Assembly: GCA_965249175.1 (NCBI GenBank)
Contig: OZ252227.1
Span: 6,320,043 to 6,384,042 of the forward strand
DNA from: Vicinamibacterales bacterium
GTDB taxonomy: Bacteria > Acidobacteriota > Vicinamibacteria > Vicinamibacterales > UBA8438
Direction of reading: 5' to 3'
Length of the DNA stretch: 64,000 nt
A program made the translations under genes and the position numbers. Shown here in pieces: positions 1,271 through 23,026 of this stretch. Each line of letters begins with the position of its first letter. Position 1 is the first letter of the stretch. Under the pieces are notes generated by a model. The model searched no databases, was not told the DNA's origin, and saw only the letters and a program-made list of their open reading frames with translations.

Positions 1271-2623
1271 ATGATGCGCGTGACGCGCCCGACGGTAGCC
1301 CTAGCGCTGGTGACCTTGTGTCTCGCCGCTTCGCCGATCCGCGCCGATGACTGGCCCGAGTGGCGCGGCCGCGGCCGCCTTGGTGTCTGGACCGAGACCG
1401 GCATCGTCGAGACGTTGCCCGAAGGCGGGCTGCCGGTCGCTTGGCGCATGCCGATCGGCGGCGGCTACGCGGGACCGGCGGTCGCCGACGGGCGCGTCTT
1501 CGTGACGGACGCGCGCCGGCTGGACCCACGCAACACCGAGGTCGTCGAGCGCCTGGTCGTCCTGGACGAACGGAGCGGCGACGTGCGGTGGACCCACGAG
1601 TGGGAGACCAACTACGCAGGGCTGCAGCTCGCGTACGCGATCGGCCCGCGGGCGACGCCGACCGTCGACGGCGATCGAGTCTATGCACTGGGCGCGATGG
1701 GCAATCTCTTCGCCCTCGACGTCGCCGACGGCCGTGTGCTCTGGCACACCGACTACGTCCTCGACTTCAACGCGTCGGTGCCATCGTGGGGCATCACCGG
1801 GGCGCCGCTCGTGGTCGGCGACCGGCTGATCTGCCTGGTCGGGGGAGAGCCGGACGCCAAAGTCATCGCGTTCGACAAGCGGACCGGTGACGTGCTGTGG
1901 CAGGCGCTCTCGTCGGATTGGGAGCCGGGCTACTCACAACCGATTCTGATCGAGGCGGGGGGAGCCTCGCAGTTGATCATCTGGCACCCGCGCGCGATCA
2001 GCGCGCTCAACCCGGAGACCGGCGAGGTCTACTGGGAGGTGCCGCACATCGTCGACATGGGCATGGCGGTCTCGACGGCCGTCCGGAGCGGACCGTATCT
2101 GTTCGTCACCTCGCAATGGGGCGGCGCTCGGATGATGCGGTTGGCGGAGACGCATCCGGATGCGACGCTGATCTGGGAGGGCGTGGGCGAGAGCGATCCG
2201 GAATACGGTCGTGTGTTCGACACGCTCGATTCCGTCATCAGCACGCCGGTCATCCAGGGCGACTACCTCTACGGCGTCGACGGCCACGGCGTCCTCCGAT
2301 GCCTCGAGCTGCGAACCGGCAAGCGCGTGTGGGAAACCGAGGCGTTGATGGGCGAACCCGCGAGCTGGGCCACCGCCTTCTTCGTGCGGCACGGCGACCG
2401 GTATTTCATCAACACCGACGGCGGGGACCTCGTCATCGCGAGCCTGTCGCCCGAGGGGTACGACGAGATCAGCCGCGCGCGCCTGATCGCGCCGACGAGC
2501 CCCTACGTGCGCCGCCGCGCGCAGGGGCCGGTGGTCAACTGGTCACATCCGGCGTATGCCAACCGCCACATCATCGCGCGCAACGACGAAGAGATCGTCC
2601 GGGTCTCGCTCGCCGCGCCGTAG
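1271..2623 (+). CDS. secreted PQQ-like (BamB/YVTN-type) beta-propeller repeat protein
   Basis: 450-aa ORF with ATG at 1271. Signal-like N-terminus MMRVTRPTVALALVTLCLAASPIRA. Repeated propeller strands ending in W (DVRWTH, RVLWHT, DVLWQA, EVYWEV, KRVWET). Confidence 0.7.
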   Translation: MMRVTRPTVALALVTLCLAASPIRADDWPEWRGRGRLGVWTETGIVETLPEGGLPVAWRMPIGGGYAGPAVADGRVFVTDARRLDPRNTEVVERLVVLDERSGDVRWTHEWETNYAGLQLAYAIGPRATPTVDGDRVYALGAMGNLFALDVADGRVLWHTDYVLDFNASVPSWGITGAPLVVGDRLICLVGGEPDAKVIAFDKRTGDVLWQALSSDWEPGYSQPILIEAGGASQLIIWHPRAISALNPETGEVYWEVPHIVDMGMAVSTAVRSGPYLFVTSQWGGARMMRLAETHPDATLIWEGVGESDPEYGRVFDTLDSVISTPVIQGDYLYGVDGHGVLRCLELRTGKRVWETEALMGEPASWATAFFVRHGDRYFINTDGGDLVIASLSPEGYDEISRARLIAPTSPYVRRRAQGPVVNWSHPAYANRHIIARNDEEIVRVSLAAP

Positions 2624-2629
2624 ATCCCA

Positions 2630-4288
2630 ATGCGTCCGCGTGCGTTCGTGCTGCCGGTGGTCGTGGCCGCGCTGACCGGTCAGGTGCTGGTCACCATCGG
2701 CGCCAGCGGGCTCGCGGGACGCGCCCAAGCCGTCAACGGCAGCGAACGCGTCGTCACCGTGATCGGCGACCTGCACATGGGGGTCGGTCGTGACGCATCG
2801 GGCACGTGGCATCCCACGGAAGACTTTCGGTGGGCGGATGCGTTCGTCGCGTTCCTTCGCGCGCTGGACGCCGAGGGGGGCGGCGCCGCCGACCTCATTC
2901 TGAACGGCGACACGTTCGAGCTGTGGCAATCGCTCGACGCCGACTGCGTGTACGACGACCCGGAGCTTGGATGCAGCGAAGCCGAGGCGCTCGCGCGGAT
3001 GGAGCGCGTTCTCGCCTCGCACGCGCTCGAAGTCGAGGCCCTCGCCGCGTTTGCCCGGTCCGCGACGAATCGTGTCGTCGTCGTGCCAGGCGACCACGAC
3101 GCGGCGCTGCTCTTCCCGTCGGTTCTCGCCAAGGTCGAGCAGGCACTCGGCGCGCCCACTAGTCGCGCGACCGTGGCAACCGCCGGCCATTGGGCGTCCG
3201 ACGACGGTCAGATCTACGCCGAGCATGGGCATCAGATCGACGGACGTGCCAATCGCTTCGACGACTGGCCGTCGCCCTTCATCGAGCGGTCCGGGCAGCG
3301 CCATCTGGCACGGCCGTGGGGCGCTCGGACCGCCACGGCGTTCTTCGACGCGCGCGAATCTCGCTACCCCGTGATCGACAACTTCGCCGACGAGGGTGCG
3401 GGGCTGGCGCACGGCATCGCGGCCGACGGCGCCGCTGACCTCGGTCCGTCTGCCGCCGAGCTGGTGCGCTACGTCCTCTTCAGGATGCCGTGGCAGCAGT
3501 TCCGTGTCGACCTCGACGCCGGCGACGTGCAGCCGCCAACGTGGGATCTCGCCGCCGTCAAGGCCCAGGGGCCGTCGTTCCTGGCCGAGTCGCTGCCCGA
3601 CGACGATCGGTTCAAGCCGGTGGCCCGCCGCGCCCTCGATGCGGGAGTGATCTCGGCGCTCATGGACGGCATGAGCGACGAGGATCTCGACGCGCTCTGC
3701 GACTACCGGGCGGCCGTGCGGCGCGCGCGGCGCCGTTTCGAGCGCTACGTGACCCAGATCGACCCGCGCGGACCGCCGGTCGCGGCGTGTCCGCGCACGC
3801 CGGACACACGCGGCGGGTTGTTCGACTACTTCTGGCGAACACGCGATCGCACGTACTCACGGCGGCTGGAGACGGCGCAGGCGTCGCTGCCGGCGGGCGG
3901 CCGCCCGATCGCCATCTTCGTCCACGGGCACACGCACCTGGTCGACTGGCGCCAGCGGGTGCTGGAGCTGACCAGCATGGGTCGCACCGTCATCGTCGAC
4001 GGGTTCTCACCGATCCCGAACGCGCTCACCCCGGTCGTGGTCAACGGCGGCGCGTGGCAGCGAACAATCACACCCGTGCAGTACGGCCGATTGCAGGAAG
4101 CCGGTGGCGCGTCCGATGCGGAGCTGCTTGCGGCGTTACGGCCGGAGCACCTCGCGCCCTGTTACAGCTTCGTCCGCATCGATCCGTATGACGGTACGCC
4201 GGGCTTCCCGAGCATCCGGTATTGGCGCCAGGACGAAGGCGGCGCCTGGGAGATGGCAGGGGCGTGCGGTCGCGAGCCGGAGCTGTAG
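2630..4288 (+). CDS. calcineurin-like metallophosphoesterase, secreted
   Basis: 552-aa ORF starting 7 nt after the previous stop, with a hydrophobic N-terminus. Motifs VIGDLHMG, LNGDTFELW, VVPGDHD, EHGHQ, VHGHTH. Confidence 0.7.
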   Translation: MRPRAFVLPVVVAALTGQVLVTIGASGLAGRAQAVNGSERVVTVIGDLHMGVGRDASGTWHPTEDFRWADAFVAFLRALDAEGGGAADLILNGDTFELWQSLDADCVYDDPELGCSEAEALARMERVLASHALEVEALAAFARSATNRVVVVPGDHDAALLFPSVLAKVEQALGAPTSRATVATAGHWASDDGQIYAEHGHQIDGRANRFDDWPSPFIERSGQRHLARPWGARTATAFFDARESRYPVIDNFADEGAGLAHGIAADGAADLGPSAAELVRYVLFRMPWQQFRVDLDAGDVQPPTWDLAAVKAQGPSFLAESLPDDDRFKPVARRALDAGVISALMDGMSDEDLDALCDYRAAVRRARRRFERYVTQIDPRGPPVAACPRTPDTRGGLFDYFWRTRDRTYSRRLETAQASLPAGGRPIAIFVHGHTHLVDWRQRVLELTSMGRTVIVDGFSPIPNALTPVVVNGGAWQRTITPVQYGRLQEAGGASDAELLAALRPEHLAPCYSFVRIDPYDGTPGFPSIRYWRQDEGGAWEMAGACGREPEL

Positions 4289-4312
4289 TCGCAGTGAACG
4301 AGGTGTCTGAGG

Positions 4313-5609
4313 TTACTGACCTGCATCGGTACTGAGAAGGTCGAGAGGACTTCGCGCCGGCCTCCGCAGTTCTTTGACGACGTGTGTGTAGATCATCGTC
4401 GTCTCCACGTTGACGTGACCCAGGTAGTCCTGGATCTGCCGGATGTCGACACCGTTGAGCAGCAGGTGCGTTGCAAAACTGTGTCTCAACGTGTGGACGG
4501 AAACGGGCTTGTGGATGTGAGCCCTTCGGGCCGCCGCCTTGACGCCCTCTGGACGACCGAGTCATGGACGTGGTGGCGCCGCACAATGCCGGCCCGAGGG
4601 TCGGTTGCCAACGTCTTGCTTGGGAAGACCCAGAACCGCGCCAGCTCTCGGCCCGCGTTCGGATACCTACGTTCCAGGGCATCGGGCATCCAGACGCCGG
4701 CGAGTCCCGATCTGCGGTCGGCTCCGTAGACCGTCTCGGAACTCCGCAGTTGAGCCCGCAACTCCTCCCGGCCCACTTCCGCCAACAGCGTCGACCTGTC
4801 CTTGTTTCCCTTCCCACTGCGGACAAAGACCAAGCCCTGATCGAAGTCGAGGTCCTTCACGCGCAGTTGGCAACACTCAGAGACCCGCAATCCTCCTCCG
4901 TAGATCAGCGCGGCCATGAGCCAAGTCCTCCCGCGCAGGCCGCCCAGGAACGCCGCGGTCTCCGGAATGCTCAGGACGACCGGCAGCCGCGACCCGCGCT
5001 TTGCCCTCGCCGTCGAGGATAAGTCCTCCACCGCCACACCCAGCACCTCCCGGCGGAGGAACAGAATGGCGGACAGCGCCTGGTTTTGACTGCTGGCCGA
5101 CACCCGGCGCCGCACGGCCAGATGCGTCAGATAATCTCGTACGGCGACCGAGTCGACCGGCGGATGCGGCGCGTTCTGCCGCTCGGCCACATAGGCAAAA
5201 GAAACGCCGCACCCAGTCCGCATACGTGCGCTCGGTGCGGGAGGAGTAGTGCCTGGTCCTGATGCGCCGTTGCAGTTCTTCCAGCGCCGCCAGCGGATTC
5301 GTTCCGCCGTGCTCGTCCACGACGGCGCTGGCCGGCCGGCGATGCCAGTCTGTTCGCTTCAGGAAATTGACAAAGAACATCCGTAAAGCCTGCTCGGCCC
5401 TGGCGCACCTGCCACTCCTGGACGCGGCCTTTGCGCTCCAAGTCCTCACAGAACCGCCGAACCTGGTCCGCCAGGGGTTCGTCAGAAGCCTTCCTCATCA
5501 GGAATCGGCGCACCCAGCGCACGCAGTGCGGCGCCGCGTTCTCTCGGACCAGTCGCCCTCGGAGTAGGAACTCGCCGAACGGCTGGAGCGACGATTCGAG
5601 CTCACGCAT
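4313..5609 (-). pseudogene. intI: integron integrase IntI, inactivated by at least three frameshifts
   Basis: Four frame segments read MRELESS...EWQVRQ | AEQALRMFFVNFL...RTERTYADWVRRFF | FAYVAERQ...LRVSECCQLRVKDLD...[41 protein letters not shown] | [47 protein letters not shown]. The last segment is my own translation and is not in the ORF track. Shifts lie near 5400, 5200 and 4545. The catalytic R, HxxR and Y are present, as is the IntI-specific insertion. Confidence 0.85.
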
Positions 5610-5877
5610 GGTCCACCCGGACTCATGTCGAGGCAATCTGCTTGCCACCACTACGATCGCATCGTAAGTCGTGGAGCAGCAGCGGCTTGTCGAGTCGGCG
5701 CCACCGGTAGCGGTCGCTTCGGTTCGCCTCGCATCGCCAAACAGGAACCGTGCGTTGACACGCATCGCAGCGAATGGCGCACGCCAGATATCCCTGGAAT
5801 CACCAGCACATCGCGCATGCGCCAATTCACGGACAATGGACAGTGCGAATCCGGTAAACCTCTGTCGTCATTCGCAT

Positions 5878-5907
5878 TTGACCGGAAACGAGTCGCCCGG
5901 CCAGAAT
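5878..5907 (+). promoter_or_regulatory. candidate outward (Pc-like) cassette promoter TTGACC-N18-CAGAAT
   Basis: Hexamers read directly between the intI start (5609) and the first cassette ORF (6012). Only a sigma70-like match, with no other support. Confidence 0.25.
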
Positions 5908-5988
5908 GCCAGCGGAAAAGGATTTACACGCCATCGGTTGGATGTGTCGAACGCAAAACCGTTAATTGGCGTACGCGGGTTATAGAAC

Positions 5989-5995
5989 GTTATGC
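5989..5995 (+). other. candidate attI crossover core GTTATGC
   Basis: The GTT-core heptamer closest to the first cassette ATG (6012). It resembles the R' boxes of the attC sites (cGTTATGt at 9795). Confidence 0.25.
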
Positions 5996-6011
5996 CTGTT
6001 GATAGAGCCAG

Positions 6012-6840
6012 ATGACACTCTCTAATGAGGTCTCGACGTTGGTCGATGATTTCGTCCTGCGAGACCGCAGGCTTGGAGACCACTCATCGACTACTGTCGA
6101 CGTGCTGCTCGCGGAGGGTGGTGAGAGTCGCTTGATCGCTCGATCTCGCACTCCGGCCGCCGAGCTACCGAGCCAGAAGCAGAGAGTCAAGATCCCGAAC
6201 TTCAAGTATATCCGTGACACGTCCATGACGATGGGCGACGACGCCGATATTCGGTCACGCGTCGTATGCGCGGTGGCTTCCGGGACGACAACTCTTGGCA
6301 TGCTGTCGCTGAGAAGCAAGCATGAAGTGTTGAGCCCGACGGACGTACGCCGCCTACACGTCTTGAGCGCCCTGGTTGCGTACGAAATCGTCTACCTCCA
6401 GGCGAGAGCCAGAGTACCGTCGCGTTTGTCGCTCGAACTGGGTGTTGTGCTGCGGGCGGCTCGAAAGGAGATGGGCCTGAGCCAAGAGGATCTCGCTGCC
6501 CTGGTCGGGACGAGTCGGATCTCGGTGTCGAGGTGGGAGACGGGAACGCAATTGCCCTCCCGTGGCCCGCTTCGGAACTGGGCGACCGCGCTAGGGCTGC
6601 TCGCCGGAGGGCGATCCACGATTGTCGCCGCGGTCGACGCGACTCCCGAGCTTCTGGAATTACTGCGGCGAGATCCCGGTCGGCTGTCGCAGCTTTCGGC
6701 GGAGCAATTCGAACAGGTCGTTGCAGAGCGGCTTGACCGAATGGGGTACGCGGTCCAGAGAACCGGGGCTGTGAACCAGAAGGATGGCGGCATCGACATC
6801 ATCGCGATCCCTCGAGCAGACACCGCGAGTGTTCTAATTG
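6012..6840 (+). pseudogene. GAF-like / XRE-HTH / Mrr-type restriction-endonuclease domain protein, 5' part, interrupted by ISL3
   Basis: HTH motif LRAARKEMGLSQEDLAALVGTSRISVSRWETG. Mrr_cat-like motif LSAEQFEQVVAERLDRMGYAVQRTG...DGGIDIIAIP. The ORF runs into the IS inverted repeat at 6841. Removing the IS and one TSD copy continues in frame as SVLIAVQVKHHRGSRKTGRATV (8298-~8345). Confidence 0.6.
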
Positions 6841-8289
6841 GGCTCTTCGTCGATTTGAGTACAGCGATCTGAGGTGATACCCGGCCGCCTGCGCGGGCCG
6901 CAATTGAGGTGGGCGGCCTGCTCGACGGCCTGGACGAAAGAACGCGATCCCACTTGCACCGGACCACCCGGTGTTGTTCTCTCTTGATGTGCAACCAAGA
7001 AGGGAGGACACGTGGGATCGCAACGGGATTGTACCTGGATCTTGGGCTTGTCGGGCTTCCGAGTGGTGCGCGTCGAACGGGAGGACGACGGGGTGGAGAG
7101 TCGCCTGCGGTTGCAGTTGGAGCGGCGCGGGATACGGCGCTATGTGTGCAACGGCTGTGGACGCCGCACCGGCCGCGTGCGCGCCGCGCGCGAGCGGACG
7201 TGGGACGATCTGCCCTGGGCACGGCATCCGGTCACGTTGGTCTACCGGCAACGACGCGTGATCTGTCGCCACTGCGGGGTGCGCACGGAGCGGATCGAAT
7301 TTGCCACCCCGAAGGCCCGGGTCACGCGCCGCTTGCGCCAGCAGATCGGCCTGGATTGCCAGTCGATGCCGACCAGCCACGCCGCCGTGCGGCACCGCGT
7401 CAGCTGGGGCAAAGCCCGGCGCGCCGAGACGGCCTTCTTGACCGAGTGGGATCGCACCCGCCGGAAACGGCGACCGCGGCACATCGGCCTCGATGAGGTG
7501 CAGCGCGGGAAGGGCCAGCGCTTCTGGACTGTCCTGTCGGATGTGGTGCGCGGCGAGGTCATGGGCTTGCGTCAGGATCGCACAACGACTACCGCCACGA
7601 CCTTGCTCACGGAGGATCTCGACCCGCATCAGCGGGGCGCGATTCACGCGGTGTGTACCGACATGCACCGGCCCTATCTCAATGCGGTCACGCAGGTGCT
7701 GCCGCAGGCCGACGTGGTGTTCGACAAATTCCATGTCCTCCAGCATGCGAGCGCCGCGCTCGACGAGGTCCGCCGCCAAGAGTTCTTCCGCGCCGGGGCC
7801 GTGATGCGTGCCCATGGGCGCGGGAAACGCTGGTTGCTGCTCCGGCGCTGGAAGACGGTCCGCGGCTCGAAGCGCCGGGAACTGCAGACGTTGTTTGCCG
7901 CGAATCGCCGGCTGTTCAAAGCCTGTCTCCTGCGCGAACAGCTCGACCGCCTGTGGACGTATCGGACGCCGATGGGCGTGGGGCACTTCCTCATCGGCTG
8001 GGTGACCGCGTTGCGCTGGCAACGGCTCCCCGAGATGGAGCGCCTCGGCGCGTTCCTCGTTCGTCATCTCGAGGGCATCGCTGCCTACTGCTTCCACCCT
8101 GTTCGCTTCGGCGTGGTCGAATCGATCAACACGACCATCAAGGCGGTCCTCCGCCGCGCACGCGGTATGCAGAATGAACAACTGCTCTTGCTCAAACTGA
8201 AGTGGGCCACGGCTCATCCGATTCGATCGTCTCGCGACCTGGCGCGCTTCTTGAGCCTTCAACCCTTGTACTCAAATCGGTGAAGAGCC
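6841..8289 (+). mobile_element. ISL3-family insertion sequence (1449 bp)
   Basis: 23-bp terminal inverted repeats GGCTCTTCGTCGATTTGAGTACA (6841-6863) and TGTACTCAAATCGGTGAAGAGCC (8267-8289), with 2 mismatches. Perfect 8-bp target duplication TCTAATTG at 6833-6840 and 8290-8297. Confidence 0.9.
7012..8283 (+). CDS. ISL3 family transposase
   Basis: 423-aa ORF inside the IS. N-terminal zinc finger CNGCGRRTGRV...CRHCG and an ISL3-type DDE region (GLDEVQRGKGQRFWTVLSDV, AVCTDMHRPYLNAV). Confidence 0.9.
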   Translation: MGSQRDCTWILGLSGFRVVRVEREDDGVESRLRLQLERRGIRRYVCNGCGRRTGRVRAARERTWDDLPWARHPVTLVYRQRRVICRHCGVRTERIEFATPKARVTRRLRQQIGLDCQSMPTSHAAVRHRVSWGKARRAETAFLTEWDRTRRKRRPRHIGLDEVQRGKGQRFWTVLSDVVRGEVMGLRQDRTTTTATTLLTEDLDPHQRGAIHAVCTDMHRPYLNAVTQVLPQADVVFDKFHVLQHASAALDEVRRQEFFRAGAVMRAHGRGKRWLLLRRWKTVRGSKRRELQTLFAANRRLFKACLLREQLDRLWTYRTPMGVGHFLIGWVTALRWQRLPEMERLGAFLVRHLEGIAAYCFHPVRFGVVESINTTIKAVLRRARGMQNEQLLLLKLKWATAHPIRSSRDLARFLSLQPLYSNR

Positions 8290-8306
8290 TCTAATTGCGG
8301 TGCAAG

Positions 8307-8393
8307 TCAAGCATCACCGCGGGTCCCGAAAGACTGGGCGAGCCACTGTCGGGGGATGTCCGGAGATAGCGCGTTGTCGACGAGGAATCTCAT
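8307..8393 (-). pseudogene. DUF5615-like (PIN-like) toxin remnant, 28 codons
   Basis: My own translation MRFLVDNALSPDIPRQ...*. Its ATG overlaps the DUF433 stop as ATGA. Only the first ~11 residues look like the family; the rest is lost at a deletion junction near 8345-8360. Confidence 0.45.
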
Positions 8394-8620
8394 CGACTGG
8401 GCAACAGGGGCAGTTCGCGCTCTCCCACGGCCTCAGCCGCGAACTGGAGCGCCTCGCGAATATCGCCCTCCTCAAGGTCCGGGTAGGCCGCGAGAATCTC
8501 GGCGTGGGACATGCCGTCGGCGACCATGCCGACGACCGTGGCCACAGGAATGCGCAGGCCTCGGATGCATGGCACCCCGTTCATCTGGGCGGCGTCGATG
8601 GAGATTCGATCGAATGTCAT
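8390..8620 (-). CDS. DUF433 domain protein (antitoxin-like)
   Basis: 76 aa. ISIDAAQMNGVPCIRGLRIPVATVVGMVADGMSHAEILAAYPDLEEGDIREALQFA matches the DUF433 pattern. Confidence 0.75.
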   Translation of the reverse strand: MTFDRISIDAAQMNGVPCIRGLRIPVATVVGMVADGMSHAEILAAYPDLEEGDIREALQFAAEAVGERELPLLPSR

Positions 8621-8645
8621 GGTCCCAACTCGTTGATCTTCCGCA

Positions 8646-8672
8646 ATTATACGCCGCCGCCCGGGTGCTCAA
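8646..8672 (-). promoter_or_regulatory. candidate sigma70 promoter TTGAGC-N15-TATAAT for the inverted TA cassette
   Basis: Minus strand reads cgTTGAGCacccgggcggcggcgTATAATtgcgg, about 25 nt upstream of the DUF433 ATG. The spacer is short. Confidence 0.3.
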
Positions 8673-8774
8673 CGACGATCGCTCTCGACCGCAGAATGGC
8701 CCGGCAGGAGCGCGGCCAGACTGGCCAAACAGACGGGGTCTTGAGGTTATCTGACGCTCGGATCATGATCACAA

Positions 8775-8832
8775 GGCTAACCAAGCAATGCAGCGGACCG
8801 GCTGAGCCGGCCGCTGATTGCTGACGTTAGGC
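8775..8832 (+). other. integron attC site 1 (58 bp)
   Basis: GGCTAAC-caagcaatGCAGCGG-accggctgagccgg-CCGCTGattgctgac-GTTAGGC. Imperfect palindrome with unpaired bases; R' fits GTTRRRY. Confidence 0.8.
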
Positions 8833-8924
8833 CGACTGGATCGCAGCCAGTGGCAGCCGACTTGAACTAGAACGCCCACAGAAACCCGCGCACCAACCAA
8901 CGTGATGCAACCAGGACGCGAACC

Positions 8925-9722
8925 ATGAGTAACCCTTTTGTCCCAGGCGTCGGCGGGATCCTCAGCGCCGATATCGCCGTCCCAGAACACGATCGCGAAC
9001 TGAGCTTCTACTCACGTGTCCTGACCACGGGTGAGAATCCACTTTGGCGGGACGACCTGACGAACAACCGAGGAATGCCGATCATCGGCCTGGGCGCGCG
9101 CAGTGCTGAGTACGAAAAGCTACCGCTGCAATGGATGCCGCACATACAGGTCGCCGATGTCGCAACCAGTGTCGCGCGTGCGCTGGAGCTGGGCGGGGAT
9201 GAGCTTATGCATTCCAAAGACGACGGCGGAAAAAGTCAGTGGGCTGTTCTCCTCGATCCCAATGGGGCGGCGTTCGGGGTCATCCCAGTCGTCTCTGCCG
9301 AGTCCATTTCCCCGGATGAGGGCGGCGCATCGCGCGACGCCGCGGAGCGTGCGGGTTGCATTTCTTGGCTCAACCTGACGGTCTCTGACGCCCTGGCAAC
9401 CCGTGACTTCTATCGACAGGTCGTGGGCTGGTCGGTGCAGAACATCGAGATGGAGGACGCGAAAGAGGCCTACATCGACTACAACATGCGCGGTGATGAT
9501 GGGAACTCGGCGGCGAGAGTCTGTCATGCACGCGGCGCGAACCTGGGCCTGCCGCCGGTCTGGCTGATGTACCTCCCCGTTGGCGATCTCCCCGAAAGTC
9601 TTCGTCGTGTGCGAGAGGGCGGGGGTGAGATCATCAAAGCGACTCAAAAATCAGATGGGACATACGCATCTGCCGTTGTTCAGGACTCGGTGGGTGCGTG
9701 CCTGGCGTTGGTACCGGGATAA
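8925..9722 (+). CDS. VOC (glyoxalase/bleomycin-resistance fold) family protein, two tandem modules; integron cassette
   Basis: 265-aa ORF filling the interval between attC1 and attC2. Two repeats of a VOC-like module (…PHIQVADVATSVARALELGG…LLDPNGAAFGVI; …WLMYLPVGDLPESLRRVREGGG…VVQDSVGACLAL). Confidence 0.6.
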   Translation: MSNPFVPGVGGILSADIAVPEHDRELSFYSRVLTTGENPLWRDDLTNNRGMPIIGLGARSAEYEKLPLQWMPHIQVADVATSVARALELGGDELMHSKDDGGKSQWAVLLDPNGAAFGVIPVVSAESISPDEGGASRDAAERAGCISWLNLTVSDALATRDFYRQVVGWSVQNIEMEDAKEAYIDYNMRGDDGNSAARVCHARGANLGLPPVWLMYLPVGDLPESLRRVREGGGEIIKATQKSDGTYASAVVQDSVGACLALVPG

Positions 9723-9728
9723 GGAAGT

Positions 9729-9801
9729 GCCTAACCACGAATTGCAGCGGACGCCCGCACTGTTTCGCCCCAGCCGGCGCCGCTGAATACTGACGTTATG
9801 T
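9729..9801 (+). other. integron attC site 2 (73 bp)
   Basis: GCCTAAC-cacgaattGCAGCGG...CGCCGCTGaatactgac-GTTATGT. R'' fits RYYYAAC exactly. Begins 7 nt after the cassette stop. Confidence 0.8.
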
Positions 9802-9823
9802 CGACACGCCACAAGAGCCAGGG

Positions 9824-10844
9824 GTGACCATGTTCGAGGACACCTTGAGAGAGCTCGGGAGGTTGGATGGAGTAACTAAGTTCTCCATCGAGCTTGAGCT
9901 CGACGACAAAGGGTGCCTGGACCGATTGTGCCCATCAGCCGCATGTCGGGCACCGTTCAAAGTCAGGTTTGAGGACTGGCGAAATATCGTCCGTGATGAG
10001 GTCGTCTACTGCCCGCTCTGCCGACACGACGACCCGGCCTCAGACTGGAACACGCCTGAGCAGTCCGAGCAGATCAAGGGAGCCGCGCTCGCCCACGTTC
10101 AACGTAGACTGGGCCGGGCTCTGGGGAACGACTCTCGGCGATTCAACGCGAGACAGCCCCGCGGCGGTCTCATCAAGATGAGCATGTCGTACCGGCCTGG
10201 CCGCACCTCCGTGGCCGTTCCGGCGACGGCAACAGACGTGATGACGCAGGAGTTCGACTGCCCGGAGTGCCACTGCCGGTACTCGTCGGTCGGCGCAGCG
10301 TTCTTCTGCCCCTCCTGCGGTCACAACAGCGTTTTGGAAACATTCAAGAATTCCGTCGAGACCGTGCGAAAAACGATGGACGCGCTACCGGGTATCCGGG
10401 AAGCAATCGCCGAAGAAACAGGCGAGAATGTTGCTGAAGATTCGATCCGGCACATCACCGAGAACGGCCTGGTCAAGCTCGTCTCCTCGTTGCAGCGTTA
10501 TGCCGAGGCGCTGTTTTCACTGCCTGCCGAACGCAGCCCAATTCGAGGTTCGCAAGAACTTGTTCCAGAACCTGATGGAATCTGATGCGCTATGGCGTAG
10601 CGCAACCGGCACGGGATATTCGGAGATTCTCGGTGGTGAAGAGCTCAGCGTGCTCCAACGCTACTTTCAGCAGCGGCATCTTCTGTCTCACAAAGAAGGC
10701 ATAGTCGACCAGCTGTACATCGAGCGTTCTGACGATCGAACACTTGATGTAGGGCAACGGCTCCGTGTGTCGTCCGAGCATGTCCGGGAACTCGCGGCGA
10801 TCATTACGAAGCTGTCAACGCGAATGTCGCAACACGTGACATAA
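9824..10844 (+). pseudogene. double zinc-ribbon / HEPN-like (Rx4H) cassette protein, one frameshift near 10520
   Basis: ORFs 9824..10585 and 10428..10844 join as ...LQRYAEALFSLPAE | AQFEVRKNLFQNLMESDALW...YFQQRHLLSHKEG... The N-terminus has CPSAAC..CPLC and CPEC..CPSC. The stop TAA lies inside R'' of attC3. Confidence 0.55.
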
Positions 10845-10896
10845 CCACGCAATGCAGCGGATCGGCTGCGCCGACCGCTGATTGCTGACGTTATAC
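10839..10896 (+). other. integron attC site 3 (58 bp)
   Basis: ACATAAC-cacgcaatGCAGCGG-atcggctgcgccga-CCGCTGattgctgac-GTTATAC. Nearly identical arms to attC1. Confidence 0.8.
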
Positions 10897-10985
10897 GTGC
10901 ACTGCAATAAGTCGAACGAGTTGAAATCGCGCTCCGCAGAAGGGAGTGGACTTTCCGAGAGGATTGGCGTCCAACGTGCTGAACG

Positions 10986-11465
10986 TTGGCGATCCGCGGC
11001 CGAAGGAGAATGACGGACTACGAAGCGTACAGCCTCTGGATCCGACTCTTGGGGGTTATCGCGACGTTCGCTGCTGTGGTGGTGGCAATTTGGGGTGAGC
11101 GGATTCGTCAGAAGCTTGTCAAGCCGAAGCTATCACTCCAGCTTGCGGAGCCCTCTCTGACTACGACGAACGACGGTCGTAAGGGTTGGTACTACCTTCT
11201 CTGCGTCTCGAACGGCCGCCAGTCTTCGCCTGCGTCAAACGTGCGGATTGTCCTGACGCGTCTGTGGCGAGTCGGGCCAGACCGGTCATGGCAGGAACAG
11301 CGCTTCAGTGGGCCGACGCAAGTGACATGGCGGTGGCCAGAACTAATGCCTCTGTACGCAACGGTGGGACCAGAGGCATGTGCGACCTTCGGATACGTGC
11401 TCCAAGGAGACGAAGTATTCTCCCTACGTTTGTACTGGGTTCCGAACAACCTGACCCCAACGTGA
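10986..11465 (+). CDS. hypothetical membrane-anchored protein (cassette without a recognisable attC)
   Basis: 159-aa ORF (TTG at 10986; alternative ATG at 11010). One N-terminal TM segment, LWIRLLGVIATFAAVVVAIWG. No family recognised. Confidence 0.45.
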   Translation: MAIRGRRRMTDYEAYSLWIRLLGVIATFAAVVVAIWGERIRQKLVKPKLSLQLAEPSLTTTNDGRKGWYYLLCVSNGRQSSPASNVRIVLTRLWRVGPDRSWQEQRFSGPTQVTWRWPELMPLYATVGPEACATFGYVLQGDEVFSLRLYWVPNNLTPT

Positions 11466-11606
11466 GCGACCGGGAACATCGGTAACAGAATAGACCGGCA
11501 ACATGGGTAACACCTCGTGGTTGCCGAGAAAGCGCGAGTGCCTGTGGGAGCGGTGGGAAGCCGCGCTCTTTGCGGGTGTCCACGGCTTCCACAGGCCAGT
11601 CGACTG

Positions 11607-12003
11607 TTAGGGTCGGAGGACGTAGTCACGTTCGTCGAGCCGCGCTAAGAGGACCTGACAGAAATAGATCGACCAGACGCCGTCGTCAACGTCCTCGAGT
11701 CCAATCGGGTGGTGCGTCAGGGCCTGGGAGACGAAGAGTAGCCGGTGCTTGAAGCGGATGGTACCCGCCGTGGTCACGCGCTTCACCAGGCAGTGGCCCG
11801 GATAGTCAATCGGGGGCAGCTCGCGGGGAAACGGTCGGGGCGACGGCTGATAGAGGGATCCGGGCGTGCGGCCCTGGAGGGCGTCATGCGGCCGCTCGTC
11901 ATTGAACTCGTCGCGGAAGGCATTGAAGGCTCGTGGCTGCGTCGCGAGCGTGGCCCGGGGCGGTCGAATGGCGCCGGCTTTGAGCGTCTTGTGCATCCGC
12001 ACG
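11607..12003 (-). pseudogene. IS481-like transposase, C-terminal fragment
   Basis: ...RMHKTLKAGAIRPPRATLATQPRAFNAFRDEFNDERPHDALQGRTPGSLY...GTIRFKHRLLFVSQAL... (part of ORF 11607..12110). Confidence 0.7.
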
Positions 12004-13440
12004 GAGATATAACCAGAAGTTGTGGATCGGCAGTCTGAAGAAGGCGGCGTATCCTTTCGCGTGAGCAACGCGAAAACTCCGGCTGGCAGGCCGGTGAAAG
12101 GAGCCGCCACCCATGCTGAAGGTACTCGACAACGATGGAGCAGACAACGAAGTTCCGCCGGAAGAGCGCGGTGCGCAGACGGTGGACGAGCTGGCCCGGG
12201 AGGGAGCCCGGCGGATGTTGATGACGGCCCTGGCGGTGGAGGTCGGGCAGTACATCGAGGCCCACGGCGAGGAGCGGGACGCGCGGGGACGCCGGCTGGT
12301 CGTTCGGAATGGTCGGGCCCAGGCGCGGAAGGTGACGTGCGGGGCAGGTACGCTCGAGGTGCATGCTCCTCGGGTGAACGACAAAAGGGTCAACGGCGCG
12401 GGCCAGCGGGAGCGGTTCACGAGTCGGATCTTGCCCCCCTACATGCGTCGCTCGCCCAAGGTGGCGGAGGTGCTGCCGATCCTCTATCTGCGCGGTCTGT
12501 CGACGGGCGATTTCCGCGAAGCGCTGCCGGTGCTATTGGGGGATGACGCGGCCGGCCTCAGCGCGACCAACATCGCGCGCCTCACGGCGGTGTGGGAAGA
12601 GGACTACCGGCGGTTCCGCCAGCGGGACCTGGCCGATCGTGACTACGTGTACGTGTGGGTCGACGGCATCCATTTCAACATCCGGCTCGAGGACGATCGG
12701 CTCTGTACGCTGGTGATCATCGGCGTACGGCCCGATGGGACCAAGAAGCTCGTGGCCCTGGAGGACGGCTACCGCGAGAGCACCGACAGCTGGGCGACGG
12801 TGCTGCGGGACCTCCAGCGGCGCGGCATGCGGGCCCCGGTGGGGGCGGTCGGCGACGGCGCCCTGGGTTTCTGGGCGGCCGTGCGCGACGTGTGGCCGGA
12901 CACGCGAGAGCTCCGCGACTGGTGTCACAAGATGGGCAACGTGCTCGACAAATTGCCAAAGCGATTACAGCCGAAAGCGAAGCGCGCGCTCCGCGAGATC
13001 ATGTACGCCGAGACGCGGGCACACGCCGAGGAGGCCATGGACGTCTTCATCGCCGAGTACGAGGCCAAGTACCCGAAGGCGGCGGCGTGCCTGGACGCAG
13101 ACCGCGACCGCCTCCTCACGCACTTTGCCCTGCCAGCTGAGCATTGGCAGCACGTGCGCACGAGCAACGTCATCGAGTCGCCATTCGCCACGGTCCGACT
13201 CCGGCAGCGCGTGACCAAAGGCGCGGGCTCGCGCACCAAGGGCCTGTTGATGGCCTACAAGCTGCTCGAGATGGCACAGCAGCGCTGGCGTCGGCTCAAT
13301 GGCGCGCATCTGCTGCCACTCGTCCGCGCCGGCGTGACGTTCATTGACGGGGTACAGCAGGAGCGAAACAACGAGGGAGATCGGAAGGTGGCCGCCTGAT
13401 CACGCTGATGACCGATCCACAACATTTGACAATATCTCAG
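12004..13440 (+). mobile_element. IS256-family insertion sequence, copy A
   Basis: Terminal inverted repeats GAGATATAACCAGAAGTTGTGGATCGG (12004-) and CCGATCCACAACATTTGACAATATCTC (-13438). A 7-nt direct repeat CCGCACG flanks it at 11997-12003 and 13441-13447. The exact right end is uncertain by 2 nt. Confidence 0.85.
12113..13399 (+). CDS. IS256 family (mutator-type) transposase
   Basis: 428 aa. YVWVDGIHFNIRLEDDRLCTLVIIGVRPDGTKKLVAL...VGDGALGFWAAVRDVWP...WCHKMGNVLDKLPK. Confidence 0.9.
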   Translation: MLKVLDNDGADNEVPPEERGAQTVDELAREGARRMLMTALAVEVGQYIEAHGEERDARGRRLVVRNGRAQARKVTCGAGTLEVHAPRVNDKRVNGAGQRERFTSRILPPYMRRSPKVAEVLPILYLRGLSTGDFREALPVLLGDDAAGLSATNIARLTAVWEEDYRRFRQRDLADRDYVYVWVDGIHFNIRLEDDRLCTLVIIGVRPDGTKKLVALEDGYRESTDSWATVLRDLQRRGMRAPVGAVGDGALGFWAAVRDVWPDTRELRDWCHKMGNVLDKLPKRLQPKAKRALREIMYAETRAHAEEAMDVFIAEYEAKYPKAAACLDADRDRLLTHFALPAEHWQHVRTSNVIESPFATVRLRQRVTKGAGSRTKGLLMAYKLLEMAQQRWRRLNGAHLLPLVRAGVTFIDGVQQERNNEGDRKVAA

Positions 13441-13872
13441 CCGCACGTTGAGTCGCGAGAGACCGTGAATCCCGGTCGTGGCGAACGGGACGCCGTTGTC
13501 ACTGCGAATGGCGGTCGGCAGACCGAATTCCCGGAAGATCCGCTCAAAGACGGGCCTGACGCCGGCGCCTTTCGTCGACCGGAGTCCCTGACAGCCGAGC
13601 AGATAGCGGGAGTGGAGGTCGGCGATCGTCAGCGGGTAGCAATAGATGCCGTCGCGCGTCCGAAAATGCCCCTTGAAATCCGTGGTCCACAGGTCGTTGG
13701 GGTGCGTCGTGGTCGCGGGGACCGCCCCGGGATGCCGACACGGCCGGCGCCGGCGCCGCTTCTTGACCAAGCCTTCGCGAGCGAGCAGGTCGCCCGCGGT
13801 ACTCACGGCCGGCCAGCCCACCCGCGGATGCCGCGGCTGAAGCCAGTCGAGCGTCCGTGAACCGGGTCTTCT
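13441..13872 (-). pseudogene. IS481-like transposase, N-terminal/central fragment
   Basis: ...LDWLQPRHPRVGWPAVSTAGDLLAREGLV...NDLWTTDFKGHF...YCYPLTIADLHSRYLL...AIRSDNGVPFATTGIHGLSRLNV, then IS256. The frame opens just after a TGA at 13873-13875. Confidence 0.7.
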
Positions 13873-13945
13873 TCATGGCTCCTCCTCGCCCGGAGGACGC
13901 CATTCTCTCAAGTGTCAGCTGGTCCGAAAAACGGCAGGCAGGTCA

Positions 13946-13979
13946 GGCTGACGCCGGCCGCTGATTGGTAACGTTAGCG
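13946..13979 (+). other. partial attC (loop, L' and R' half only)
   Basis: ggctgacgccggCCGCTGattggtaacGTTAGCG aligns with the right half of attC1. The R''/L'' half is absent next to the IS481-like remnant. Confidence 0.65.
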
Positions 13980-14016
13980 GGATCATCACGAATCACGACC
14001 ACGACGAATCACGACT

Positions 14017-14340
14017 TTGAGTGAGACGCTCGGGCGAATCCAAGCACTTGTGGATCGGGGGGAGTTCCAGGTATCGGTCCACGGCTACGACGAACTTGCG
14101 GACGATCGGATCGCCGTTCGCGACCTCGTTGCCGGATTGGGAAACGCCCAATTGATCGAAGACTATCCCGCGTACGCGAAAGGGCCGTGCTGCCTCGTAT
14201 TACAGCGAGATGGAGCCGGGCAACCGATTCATGTAGTCTGGGGTATCCTCGCGGGTCGAATCTCACCGGCCGTCCTGATCACAGCTTATCGGCCCGATCC
14301 CGAGAGATGGGATGAATCGTGGACGAGGAGGCGAACATGA
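14017..14340 (+). CDS. DUF4258 domain toxin-like protein (cassette)
   Basis: 107 aa with a TTG start. ...VSVHGYDELADDRIAVRDLVAGLGNAQLIEDYPAYAKGPCCLVLQRDGAGQPIHVVWG fits the DUF4258 pattern. Confidence 0.7.
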   Translation: MSETLGRIQALVDRGEFQVSVHGYDELADDRIAVRDLVAGLGNAQLIEDYPAYAKGPCCLVLQRDGAGQPIHVVWGILAGRISPAVLITAYRPDPERWDESWTRRRT

Positions 14341-14555
14341 GCGAGCGATCGACGACGAAGCTCGTGCGCGAGGGCGATTTCGTTGCCGAGGTGCAGGTCC
14401 GCCTAGTCGAAGACGACAGCGACTGGTCGCCATACCTATCCCCCGACGACGCGTTCAAACTGGACGACGTGCGGGACGCCCTCCGAGCGGGCGACCTGAA
14501 ACGGGCCGCACAGCTGGCCGCGCGCCTCTATCGGCTCACGCCGATGGAAGCCTGA
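14337..14555 (+). CDS. putative cognate antitoxin (family not recognised)
   Basis: ATG at 14337 overlaps the DUF4258 stop as ATGA. 72-aa acidic protein, MSERSTTKLVREGDFVAEVQV... The track ORF 14319..14555 has an earlier in-frame start. Confidence 0.5.
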   Translation: MSERSTTKLVREGDFVAEVQVRLVEDDSDWSPYLSPDDAFKLDDVRDALRAGDLKRAAQLAARLYRLTPMEA

Positions 14556-14583
14556 CACCGACTTCGAAGGCGTTCGATCACGC

Positions 14584-14652
14584 CGCTAACCACGGGCTGC
14601 AGCGGACGCCGCCCCGGTGCTCAGCCGGCGCCGCTGAACCCTGACGATATCG
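14584..14652 (+). other. integron attC site 5, with a mutated R' core (GAT instead of GTT)
   Basis: CGCTAAC-cacgggctGCAGCGG-acgccgccccggtgctcagccggcg-CCGCTGaaccctgac-GATATCG. Confidence 0.7.
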
Positions 14653-15610: not shown

Positions 15611-17086
15611 CTAGCAGCCCGTGGTGAAAGTCCCTATTAGGGATCGACACGATCGATCCCGCGTACTACACTGTCGCGCATGGCGATGGGCAAACGACGA
15701 CGCCGGGCGCGGCAAGCATCGATGTGGGTTCCCACCAGCGACCTGCCTCGCAGTGCGGCGCATCCGTTCTATCAGCGATTGAATCGGATCCTCGATGACA
15801 CGGGCTTCGACGCGTTCGTCGAGGCGCAATGCGCGCCGTTCTACGCGGACGGCGTCGGTCGTCCGAGTCTGGCGCCGGGGCGGTACTTCCGGCTGCTGAT
15901 GCTCGGCTACTTCGAAGGGCTGGACTCGGAGCGGGCGATCGCGTGGCGGGCGGCCGATTCGCTGAGCATCCGGCAGTTTCTGGACCTCGAGCTGCACGAG
16001 GCGCCGCCGGATCACTCGACGCTGTCGCGCACCCGGCGCCTGATCGACGTCGAGACCCATCAAGCGGTGTTCACGTGGGTGCTGCAGCAACTGGCCGACG
16101 CCCAGCTCGTGACCGGGCGGACCCTCGGCATCGATGCCACGACGTTGGAAGCGAACGCCGCATTGCGGAGTATCGTGCGCCGGGACACGGGCGAAGGCTA
16201 CGAGGCGTTTCTGACCGGGCTGGCCGAGGCGTCCGGCATCGTCACGCCGACCCGCGCTGAGCTGGCCCGGTTCGACCGGAAACGGAAGAAGAAAGGCTCC
16301 AACGACGACTGGACGCATCCGCAGGATCCGGACGCGAAGATCACGAAGCTGAAGGACGGGCGCACGCACTTGGCGCACACCGCGGAGCATGCGGTGGACC
16401 TGGAGACGGGGGCCATCGTCGGCGTCACCGTGCAGGATGCCGACGACGGCGATACGACGACGATGGTCGAGACCCTGATCACGGCGGCCGACCACGTCGA
16501 AGCCGTCCTGCCGGCCGGCGCCGGTATCGCCGAGGTCGTCGGGGACAAGGGGTATCACAGTAACGAGACGATGGTGGCGTTCGCCGCGCTCGGCGTGCGC
16601 AGTTATGTTTCGGAGCCGGACCGCGGGCGACGCAACTGGACAGGCAAGGCGGCGGCGCGCGACGCCGTGTACGCGAACCGTCGGCGCATTCGGGGCACGC
16701 GTGGGCAACGGCTGCTGCGACGGCGGGGCGAGTTGCTCGAACGCCCCAACGCGCATCTCTACGAGACCGGGCGGCTGCGCCGGGTGCATCTGCGTGGGCA
16801 TCCCAACATCCTCAAGCGCGTGCTTGTGCACGTCTGCGGGTTCAATCTTGGGCTCCTCATGCGGCAGCTGACGGGCGTCGGCACGCCGCGGAGCCTCCAA
16901 GGCCGCGCGGTCGCCGTCTTCGAGGCCTTGATCGCTGATCTTGGCCGCCTCTGGACCCTCGTATCGCCCGCGTGGGCGCGAGATGCGCAAGATCTGCCGC
17001 ACTCGTCGTTTCTCGACCTTATGACACGGTGTCACGAACACATGCCCCTCGACCTACGAAAGGGCGTTTTCACCACGGGCTGCTAG
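15611..17086 (+). mobile_element. IS5/IS1182-superfamily insertion sequence (1476 bp including CTAG ends)
   Basis: Perfect 19-bp terminal inverted repeat CTAGCAGCCCGTGGTGAAA (15611-15629) and TTTCACCACGGGCTGCTAG (17068-17086). The palindromic CTAG at each end could equally be a 4-bp target duplication. Confidence 0.85.
15680..17086 (+). CDS. IS5/IS1182 family DDE transposase
   Basis: 468 aa. InsH-type N-terminal region (HPFYQRLNRILDDTGFDAFVEAQCAPFY..GRPSLAPGRYFRLLMLGYFEGLDSERAIAWR) and DDE region (LGIDATTLEANAA...VVGDKGYHS). The stop is the last 3 nt of the IS. Confidence 0.9.
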   Translation: MAMGKRRRRARQASMWVPTSDLPRSAAHPFYQRLNRILDDTGFDAFVEAQCAPFYADGVGRPSLAPGRYFRLLMLGYFEGLDSERAIAWRAADSLSIRQFLDLELHEAPPDHSTLSRTRRLIDVETHQAVFTWVLQQLADAQLVTGRTLGIDATTLEANAALRSIVRRDTGEGYEAFLTGLAEASGIVTPTRAELARFDRKRKKKGSNDDWTHPQDPDAKITKLKDGRTHLAHTAEHAVDLETGAIVGVTVQDADDGDTTTMVETLITAADHVEAVLPAGAGIAEVVGDKGYHSNETMVAFAALGVRSYVSEPDRGRRNWTGKAAARDAVYANRRRIRGTRGQRLLRRRGELLERPNAHLYETGRLRRVHLRGHPNILKRVLVHVCGFNLGLLMRQLTGVGTPRSLQGRAVAVFEALIADLGRLWTLVSPAWARDAQDLPHSSFLDLMTRCHEHMPLDLRKGVFTTGC

Positions 17087-18012: not shown

Positions 18013-18312
18013 GTGATGTTCGCAAAAGGCATGTTCGAAGTAGACCTAACACCACAAGACGATGCAGGTGCCCCCGCGGGAAGGATGGTCATAGACAAAA
18101 CGTACCGGGGAGACATGAGCGGCTCCGGTATCGGTCAAATGATTAGCAAGAGAACCGACAGCGGAGCAGCGGTGTACTACGCGATCGAGGAATTCTCCGG
18201 CTCGGTGAACGGCAAGAGCGGTGCTTTTACGCTGGTCCACAAGGGCCAAATGAGCAAGGAGTCTCAGTCGCTAGACGTAGCCATTCTCGAAGGTTCCGGG
18301 AGGGTGAGCTAA
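18013..18312 (+). pseudogene. DUF3224 protein, 5' part, interrupted by IS256 copy B
   Basis: MFAKGMFEVDLTPQ...GRMVIDKTYRGDMSGSGIGQMIS...GAFTLVHKGQM...ILEGSG, then a premature stop next to the IS end. Confidence 0.7.
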
Positions 18313-19717: not shown

Positions 19718-19728
19718 GGGCTTGACTC

Positions 19729-19908: not shown

Positions 19909-20541
19909 TCACCTCGGGCTGCTGCGAGGGAACGGCGTCGAACGGTGCGGAGTGGCGAACTCATCAAGCCCGTTTGCCTCGAATGCGGCGTCGAGCGCGA
20001 ACCGACCATCGGCCCAGACGACTCGCAGAACGTCTGGATTACGAAGAGCGGCGGTCGGCACATTGCCGAACGAATCGTCGAGGGAATGAAGAAACAGGCC
20101 GATGACGTTGCCGTGTGAACACACTGCTGCGCGAGACCAGTGAGCGCTGCTGCACGTCCCGGTGAGGCCGCTGACCATTCGGTCCTGCGCGTCGCGCGAC
20201 GTCTCGCACGTCGGTAGCGCGTAATCGAAATCCTCCCAGGAGAGGTTCCACACCTCGCGGAAGTTGTCGATGAGACCGGGAGCGAGACGGCGCTCACGCA
20301 GCGATGGATCGAGGCTGACGGCCAAGCCGCGGGCCGTCGCGAACGGCTGAATCGTGCTGACACAGCGGCGATACGGACTCGAGTAGACAGCCTCGATCCT
20401 GTACAGCGCGAGGACGTTCACGAGCCGTTCTGCCTGCCTGGCGCCGACGTCACTCAGCGGCCAGTCTTGGTCGTCAACGGCTGCCGACGGCTGACTCTGC
20501 GCGTGGCGTACGAGATAGATTTCCTTCACGTGGACCGCCAT
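19909..20541 (-). CDS. histidine phosphatase (phosphoglycerate mutase-like) family protein
   Basis: Start trimmed to MAVHVKEIYLVRHAQS (ATG at 20541). Motifs RHAQS, SSPYRRCVST, SHGNVIG. Confidence 0.75.
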   Translation of the reverse strand: MAVHVKEIYLVRHAQSQPSAAVDDQDWPLSDVGARQAERLVNVLALYRIEAVYSSPYRRCVSTIQPFATARGLAVSLDPSLRERRLAPGLIDNFREVWNLSWEDFDYALPTCETSRDAQDRMVSGLTGTCSSAHWSRAAVCSHGNVIGLFLHSLDDSFGNVPTAALRNPDVLRVVWADGRFALDAAFEANGLDEFATPHRSTPFPRSSPR

Positions 20542-22920: not shown

Positions 22921-23026
22921 GGGCCCGACTGTAGTGCAGAACCGAGTATCTTGTCCCTTGACGGTCTGGGCAGGGTAAGATTTGGAGGTATTTTTCTGAG
23001 GTTTTGGCTCAGTGGAGGGTCGACGC

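Follow-up and report, generated by a model that had tools for sequence, protein, structure and literature searches.

Between positions 4313 and 14652 of a 64-kb stretch of DNA from a Vicinamibacterales bacterium (the whole stretch is called the window below) lies what is probably a sedentary chromosomal integron with its own integrase gene, intI, broken and its cassette array damaged by insertion sequences (ISs) and deletions. The host is probably a soil bacterium with a high-GC genome. In a working integron, the integrase IntI recombines a folded bottom-strand attC site with the double-stranded attI site at G|TT, and promoterless cassettes are inserted; intI is read leftward and the cassettes rightward. 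The array studied here spans 5990 to 14652 (8.7 kb), and about 3.9 kb of it, roughly 45%, is IS DNA. The features that define an integron are present at the locus except an intact intI, and the classical features of a sedentary chromosomal integron are present except array size. A locus of this kind had been proposed in an earlier sequence-only reading of the same DNA. We compare it here with four contigs from sister strains, called L081 to L084.

The integrase gene and its three lesions

The sequence-only reading held that the minus strand from 5609 to 4313 spells a complete integron integrase, including the IntI-specific insertion and the catalytic boxes, in four frame segments. Our analysis bears this out. 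Once stitched, the protein of 431 amino acids (aa) scores 363.7 bits on the NCBIfam model TIGR02249 (cut-off 265). The alignment runs from position 2 to 314 of the 315 in the model, so that the insertion is covered, and IYTHV and the other catalytic box are encoded. Three-frame translation of the minus strand from 5700 to 4250 gives four frame segments, with junctions near 5400, 5200 and 4545; tblastn with intact homologues places the junctions at amino acids 70, 137 and 355.

4313 to 5609, minus strand: intI pseudogene; stitched, it encodes an integron integrase of 431 aa whose N-terminal part is an additional SAM-like domain of about 108 aa
5398 to 5400, minus strand: frameshift 1 (+1), coding GGG where relatives have GG (CCC on the plus strand), after codon 70
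5197 to 5200, minus strand: frameshift 2 (+1), coding TTTT where relatives have TTT (AAAA on the plus strand), near codon 137
4545 to 4547, minus strand: frameshift 3 (−1), coding GGG where L082 has GGGG (CCC on the plus strand), near codon 355

DNA alignment of this intI with its closest relatives reveals exactly three single-base insertions or deletions (indels), for a net shift of +1; the relatives themselves (93–94% nucleotide identity) are free of all three. What can still be made from the gene? The native frame halts after 70 genuine residues, and frameshift 3 throws the HxxR and Tyr boxes out of frame. Because the segment with the IntI-specific domain is split from the one with the HxxR and Tyr boxes, no internal start could yield an active enzyme. 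The DNA-binding, IntI-specific and catalytic (HxxR…Y) parts lie in different frames, which leaves the gene unable to yield active enzyme in cis. The earlier statement that the platform cannot shuffle its own cassettes therefore holds for intI as sequenced, which with three ±1 indels is unable to make active enzyme. No stop codon lies inside the segments, and every catalytic residue is still encoded. We considered programmed frameshifting and rejected it: it would require three shifts of mixed sign, and the closest relatives have none of them. No second tyrosine recombinase was found within the window.

Where do the relatives of this integrase lie? The class 1 equivalog model NF011946 gives the stitched protein 299.9 bits, short of its cut-off of 435. 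A scan of one genome per species yields full-length relatives of up to 76% identity, the N-terminal 108 or so residues included, and the closest of them come almost entirely from metagenome-assembled genomes of Acidobacteriota (Vicinamibacterales, Terriglobia). A protein search adds two closer matches. One, P0180, is an intact 431-aa IntI with 92% amino acid identity to the stitched protein; the other, P0294, has 95% identity, with 75% of the query covered. The contigs of these closer relatives are L082, L083 and L084. Within this clade TIGR02249 covers residues 109–424 alone of the 431. The N-terminal 108 or so residues (5286–5609 of the window, minus strand; residues 1–108 of P0180) form a second match to Phage_int_SAM_4 that is kept in relatives, and about 8000 proteins match at E<1e-30. 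We know of no description of an IntI architecture with an extra N-terminal SAM-like domain.

Are the lesions real? On our reading they are probably real but young, the run lengths being those of the assembled consensus. The alternative is that the integron is functional. The three intI indels, and perhaps the frameshift in cassette 3 described below, would then be errors in the consensus of a metagenome assembly made from long reads or mixed strains, and only the ISs and deletions would be real. We think this unlikely.

The following observations weigh against our reading. The three indels are all ±1 in runs of 2–4 identical bases, the very form that consensus errors take; such a context fits replication slippage and sequencing error alike. 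The remainder of intI is undamaged and contains neither a larger lesion nor a stop codon; decay of intI itself, if there is any, must therefore be very young. The ratio of private nonsynonymous to synonymous changes is ordinary (9:16 in the window against 6:14 and 4:11 in relatives); it is not clearly raised, and as a test of relaxed selection it is uninformative. The close relatives are low-coverage assemblies (3x to 12.56x), probably long-read, in which single genes are visibly split into several fragments, and the window differs from L081 by five 1-bp indels in about 9.7 kb. Integrons, like other regions that vary between strains, are prone to polishing errors when strains are mixed.

If these are errors, however, they must have clustered. 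intI carries three indels in 1.3 kb, among 267 homopolymer runs; the control, 40.8 kb of apparently intact open reading frames (ORFs) in the window with 7347 runs of 2–4 nt and 54 runs of 5 nt or more, carries no frameshift at all. In the 3.1 kb adjoining intI (1342–4485) both ORFs are intact and of the same lengths as in relatives, and a 4.1-kb block common to the window and L081 has no gaps. The other frameshifted genes of the window are dispensable paralogues or cassettes; one of them also has an in-frame stop, and the frameshift in another, cassette 3, lies outside any homopolymer. Sister strains bear an unrelated deletion in intI. The stitched IntI also has four private changes at columns at least 97% conserved in 116 relatives, including the replacement of an invariant Trp by Arg. 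These internal controls argue against random consensus error in intI rather than exclude it. A uniform sequencing-error explanation is unlikely, and lesions clustered in dispensable genes look like true pseudogenes.

Two interrupted genes stand elsewhere in the window. A PPDK_N/PEP-utilizers gene, rifampin-phosphotransferase-like (58794–61575, plus strand), is an apparent multi-lesion pseudogene, with two frame changes near 60050–60150 and an in-frame stop at 60505–60507; next to it, at about 61650–63998 and beyond, is an apparently intact paralogue. A gene of the PSD3/PSD5/PSD4/PSCyt3/PSD2 type (DUF1587/1595/1592/1588/1585; 47194–49664, plus strand) lies in two frames that switch between 48060 and 48237, and its paralogue is a single 821-aa ORF at 23012–25477.

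Recombination sites and chromosomal position

Downstream of ORFs on the plus strand, the sequence-only reading had placed attC sites at 8775, 9729, 10839, 13946 (a half-site) and 14584. Both conserved half-patterns in the 64 kb are indeed confined to these sites. In shuffled controls the observed count was reached in 0 of 100 for the 3'-half pattern and in 1 of 100 for the 5'-half pattern. In the list, R2 is one of the covariance models described below.

5940 to 5995, plus strand: attI region, crossover box GTTATGC at 5989–5995
8775 to 8832, plus strand: attC 1; R2 69.1 bits on the bottom strand; fold −20.4 kcal/mol, z −6.2
9729 to 9801, plus strand: attC 2; R2 61.1 bits; homology to L081 ends at GTT, 9797
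10839 to 10896, plus strand: attC 3; R2 60.7 bits; 92% identical to attC 1 over 52 nt
13946 to 13979, plus strand: 3' half of an attC (loop–L'–R', GTTAGCG), the R''–L'' half deleted; homology to L081 resumes at 13975, inside GTT
14584 to 14652, plus strand: attC 5, terminal; R2 55.8 bits, R-box pair flagged non-canonical; R' GATATCG (GTT→GAT)

On the bottom strand each full site folds into an R box of 5 bp (TAAC/GTTA), a short spacer without pairing, an L box whose 3' ('') arm has two extrahelical bases, and a variable loop. These folds match what is reportedly the canonical architecture and polarity of attC. The fold of attC 3 has a z-score of −5.0. In the terminal attC, GATATCG replaces GTTRRRY and the crossover triplet is mutated. 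The claim that the sites closely resemble each other also stands: mean column identity of the four full sites is 77%. So does the canonical layout, since every attC is on the strand opposite intI and the cassettes diverge from it.

Do sites of this type accompany related integrases? We built covariance model R1 from the four full sites of the window and searched 80 loci with intI relatives. It finds 66 sites (E<1e-4), and 65 of these, checked by eye, are on the intI-coding strand and upstream of intI. R1 contains no information about intI, which makes this placement an independent check. A second model, R2, was built solely from the 66 foreign sites near related intI genes. The two models together give the four full sites 56–88 bits on the bottom strand. 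R2 gives them 55.8–69.1 bits on the bottom strand, at most 19 bits on the top strand, and scores nothing else in the 64 kb above 12.3 bits. One point counts against leaning on R2 too heavily: it is partly dependent, its training sites having been found with the window-seeded model. In the 66-site family, 94% of cells are paired and 15 of 18 pairs show compensatory changes, a result reached in none of 500 shuffles, and slid controls are at most 44% paired; the alignment was fitted to the model, which favors structure somewhat.

Rfam at gathering thresholds has no matches in the 64 kb, and the exact half-pattern is not found in the 80 related loci; the relationship appears solely with a structure-aware model. 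With patterns of up to three mismatches, and with both models run with filters off, we found neither a fifth complete or divergent attC nor the left half of the 13946 site. One attC-like inverted repeat at about 11545–11600, ending in GTTAGGG, was rejected: its GTTAGGG contains the TAA stop codon of the IS481-like transposase, and neither of the two models picks it up.

Could the recombinase be a Xer-like pseudogene that happens to lie beside unrelated palindromic repeats, such as repetitive extragenic palindromic (REP)-like elements or terminators? Xer models do match the protein, at lower scores. Those scores are far under the cut-offs of XerC and XerD, whereas the protein clears the cut-off of TIGR02249 in an alignment that runs end to end. 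In the repeats the boxes R'' TAAC and R' GTTA are conserved, the extrahelical bases are asymmetric between the strands, and there is covariation. In the window, as in the 80 loci with intI relatives, the repeats are confined to the expected side and strand of intI. Differences between strains, moreover, break exactly at G|TT. We give this explanation practically no credence.

The attI site can be placed from the sister strains. Identity among the window, L082, L083 and L084 extends to ...AGAACGTTA, after which four different first cassettes begin at once. The four-strain identity ends at ...GGGTTATAGAACGTTA, where GTTA is 5989–5992; this divergence after GTTA puts the attI crossover at GTTATGC, 5989–5995. 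On the other side of intI the same two genes, a 552-aa gene with a weak metallophosphoesterase match and a PQQ_2 gene, follow in all four strains, with 93–94% nucleotide identity from intI through both. The distal flank (an NAD-binding gene, two permeases, an ABC ATPase and a PSD-family gene) is common to the window and L081, which are 98.3–99.6% identical across shared blocks. Given the conserved flanks on both sides and a source contig of 6.64 Mb, the integron is at a fixed chromosomal position.

A mobile integron, carried in recently by an IS or transposon, would be suggested by the many ISs in and around the array (ISL3, two IS256 elements and an IS1182-like element). Yet intI adjoins the same 552-aa and PQQ_2 genes in three sister strains, the distal flank is syntenic in L081, and L081 lacks the ISs outside the array, which are insertions specific to the strain. 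Nor is IntI class 1-like, on the NF011946 score given above, and the attC sites, homogeneous among themselves, match the type found beside related Acidobacteriota intI genes. We therefore regard a recent arrival as very improbable and keep to a sedentary chromosomal integron.

Cassettes, insertion sequences and sister strains

The array holds the following genes and ISs.

6012 to 8354, plus strand: cassette 1 gene, HTH_3 plus Mrr_cat nuclease, split by ISL3 at the (D)…QxK motif; 3' end lost near 8355
6841 to 8289, plus strand: ISL3-family IS, 1449 bp, transposase 7012–8283; 23-nt inverted repeats, 91% complementary; NCBIfam ISL3 256 bits
8355 to 8393, minus strand: DUF5615/PIN-like toxin remnant, first 12 codons, ending at the window-specific deletion junction
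8390 to 8620, minus strand: DUF433 antitoxin, intact, orphaned; Pfam PF04255 1.3e-22; 96% identical to the L082 antitoxin
8925 to 9722, plus strand: cassette 2, tandem glyoxalase/VOC-fold protein (Pfam), 265 aa, intact
9824 to 10844, plus strand: cassette 3, zinc-ribbon protein with a helical C-terminal domain (RHLLSH, Rx4H, HEPN-like); +1 frameshift near 10511
10986 to 11465, plus strand: cassette 4 ORF, 159 aa, no family match; own attC missing
11500 to 13940, minus strand (approximate limits): degenerate IS481-like (rve) remnant; NCBIfam IS481 85.7 bits, under the cut-off of 224, match 94–203 of 284
12004 to 13438, plus strand: IS256-family IS, transposase 12113–13399; 27-nt inverted repeats; NCBIfam IS256 270 bits
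14017 to 14555, plus strand: cassette 5, DUF4258 protein (107 aa) overlapping a 78-aa ORF; Pfam PF14076 1.2e-15

Erosion of the array by ISL3, IS256 and IS481-like insertions and by internal deletions, as first proposed, was verified for each of the three elements, and at least two deletions are demonstrable: the loss of a toxin gene and an attC at about 8355, and that of the left half of an attC at about 13945. The ISL3 element is flanked by a perfect 8-bp target duplication, TCTAATTG, at 6833–6840 and 8290–8297, and its removal restores ...IAVQVKHH... in the cassette 1 protein. IS256, flanked by a 9-bp duplication (8 of 9 identical), is inserted in the IS481-like remnant, and its removal restores the host reading frame. 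The remnant lacks its N-terminal helix-turn-helix part and is presumably also about 25 codons short around the DDE glutamate, an in-frame loss if the IS481 motif is as we take it to be.

ISs are also found beyond the array and in the sister strains. Two elements of the window, an IS1182/IS5-like one (15615–17079) and a second of the IS256 family (18311–19728; 29-nt inverted repeats, no obvious target duplication), are not in L081 and are therefore recent strain-specific insertions, ISs expanding in the window strain. Sister arrays are rich in IS110-family, IS66 and IS630-like DDE_3 elements (L081 11150–11575 and 523–1635; L082 4513–5547, 5495–6862 and 8605–9639). One IS separates intI from attI in L082. 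Where an attC boundary would be expected in L081 there is a fragment of the IS110 family, which recalls the attC-targeting IS1111 group.

What do the cassettes encode? The nuclease gene of cassette 1, which has weak PADLOC matches to PDC-S02 and RmrA, is fused near 8355 to what is left of a DUF5615 toxin gene on the opposite strand, its first 12 codons. The toxin is complete (123 aa) in L081, L082 and L083; hence a deletion private to the window took the toxin, at least one attC and the end of the nuclease gene. The DUF433/DUF5615 type II toxin–antitoxin (TA) pair is left with a whole antitoxin and 12 codons of toxin. The cassette 2 protein belongs to a 90%-identity cluster of 169 members, many of them on contigs of 1–1.5 kb.

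Cassette 3 has homologues of 336 aa, and tblastn places its frame switch at 10512–10525, where the +1 lies outside any homopolymer. Its N-terminal part matches the PADLOC candidate PDC-M14A (2.2e-11). Within RHLLxH, R282 is invariant and H287 nearly invariant among homologues. The structure model has a pLDDT of 80.8; a search with it gave no significant match in the PDB, and the best Foldseek matches to HEPN toxins are weak (E 0.8–1.1, TMt about 0.4). A nuclease role for this protein is therefore a hypothesis. The N-terminus of the cassette 4 protein reads as hydrophobic, suggesting a possible membrane anchor; the degenerate IS481-like remnant stands where the attC of this cassette would be, followed by the half attC. 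Cassette 5 has no PADLOC or NCBIfam matches and is, by arrangement only, a putative two-gene TA-like module.

The sequence-only reading saw in these genes a plausible reservoir of defense or addiction functions. Nuclease- and TA-type genes are indeed present. The reservoir role is weak, however, because most such cassettes are broken: the Mrr-type gene has been split and cut short, that for the zinc-ribbon/HEPN-like protein has a frameshift, and the toxin of the DUF433/DUF5615 pair is gone.

The earlier reading had proposed that related genomes be compared for variation in cassette content and for an intact intI. Cassette content does vary between related strains, and an intact intI is found among them, in L082. 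The differences are informative in their exact limits. Between the window and L081 homology ends at 9797 and resumes at 13975, each inside the GTT of an attC. A cassette difference bounded by crossover points implies recent integrase activity in the lineage. Decay of the integron is probably recent. In L083 and L084 intI has instead lost 148 bp, a frameshifting deletion that takes out the HxxR and Tyr boxes; the unlike lesions show that integrase loss is repeated in this population.

L083 and L084 are 99.98% identical over 11.4 kb and share the 148-bp deletion. They differ by one 1,066-bp cassette (TIR plus pentapeptide repeats; L083 2298–3363, against about 2051 in L084), a clean insertion at the attI G|TT. 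Either an integrase supplied in trans moved this cassette when intI was already broken, or these low-coverage (3–5×) assemblies mix strains. It is a tentative possibility, which we would not favor, that platforms in this clade whose own intI is broken still exchange cassettes at attI, by means of an integrase from a second integron or from incoming DNA. If so, the array of the window, with four foldable attC sites, is a live docking site and not a fossil.

The course of events at the locus may then be sketched as follows. Inactivation of intI would have been recent. The array is down to four foldable attC sites and one half-site; a toxin gene and attC sites were lost in two deletions, another cassette gene is frameshifted, and the GTT of the terminal attC is gone. 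The sites that remain could still serve an integrase supplied in trans. Failing that, the array would be frozen and would erode toward a cluster of attC sites with no integrase.

Three features of the window lie apart from the integron. A perfect 68-nt direct repeat occurs at 33504–33571, just past an MscS-like gene, and at 43182–43249, where it forms the 3' end of a PQQ-dehydrogenase gene (43174–45192, minus strand). At 20152–20483, 332 bp in or beside the region of a His_Phos_1 gene are not in L081, and the flanks are 99.3–99.6% identical. At 37608–41024 on the plus strand, three tandem paralogous genes (414, 385 and 332 aa) have 75–86% DNA identity over repeated blocks.

Comparison with known integrons

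How does the locus compare with integrons already described? The operational threshold for a sedentary chromosomal integron is reportedly more than 19 attC sites. The array of the window, with four complete sites and one half-site and no further site in the 64 kb, is below it. A cluster of at least two attC sites with no integrase nearby is said to be called a CALIN. The locus is not a CALIN by this definition: a recognizable intI pseudogene lies 3.2 kb from the first attC. A CALIN is nevertheless the functional end state to be expected if intI decay continues, and "on the way to CALIN", the label given by the sequence-only reading, is a reasonable one.

Like the Vibrio superintegron and other large sedentary integrons, the window has a chromosomal location, homogeneous attC sites and TA cassettes in reverse orientation inside the array. 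Unlike the Vibrio superintegron, it has 4.5 attC sites instead of hundreds, a broken intI and a TA toxin that is deleted. TA cassettes are reported to regulate recombination in large sedentary arrays (PMC13108822).

The sequence and structure of attC are conserved at the phylum level, and Acidobacteria are among the 11 taxa for which specific models were made (the attC-taxa models of Ghaly et al. 2021, PMC8352920). The loci studied here follow that pattern, with one attC consensus common to loci whose IntI proteins are 60–76% identical. Our R2 model is presumably equivalent to the attC-taxa Acidobacteria model.

A preprint on Xanthomonas integrons (bioRxiv 10.1101/2025.06.18.660453) describes a fixed site, arrays that vary by lineage, transposases and ISs inside them, and some lineages reduced to CALINs; it also cites lineage-wise inactivation of intI by frameshifts, stops and deletions (Gillings et al. 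2005). The window is alike in its fixed chromosomal site, inactivated intI, varying arrays and ISs inside the array. It differs in its host, an Acidobacteriota, and in its flank, the 552-aa gene and not ilvD. Its IntI of 431 aa, with the extra N-terminal SAM-like domain, and its attC consensus also set it apart from what is described there.

Lineage-specific inactivation of intI, ISs in arrays, CALINs and an attC type typical of the Acidobacteria are thus already established, and the locus shows no new mechanism. Its value is as a well-resolved case, outside the Proteobacteria, of the death of a chromosomal integron. Within one population, intI has three indels in the window, independently lacks 148 bp in two sister contigs, and is intact in a third. 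IS invasion, the loss of the DUF5615 toxin gene from its DUF433/DUF5615 pair, and cassette differences that map to exact attC or attI crossover points are all visible at the locus. It should be of use in annotating soil Acidobacteriota genomes and in studying integron turnover.

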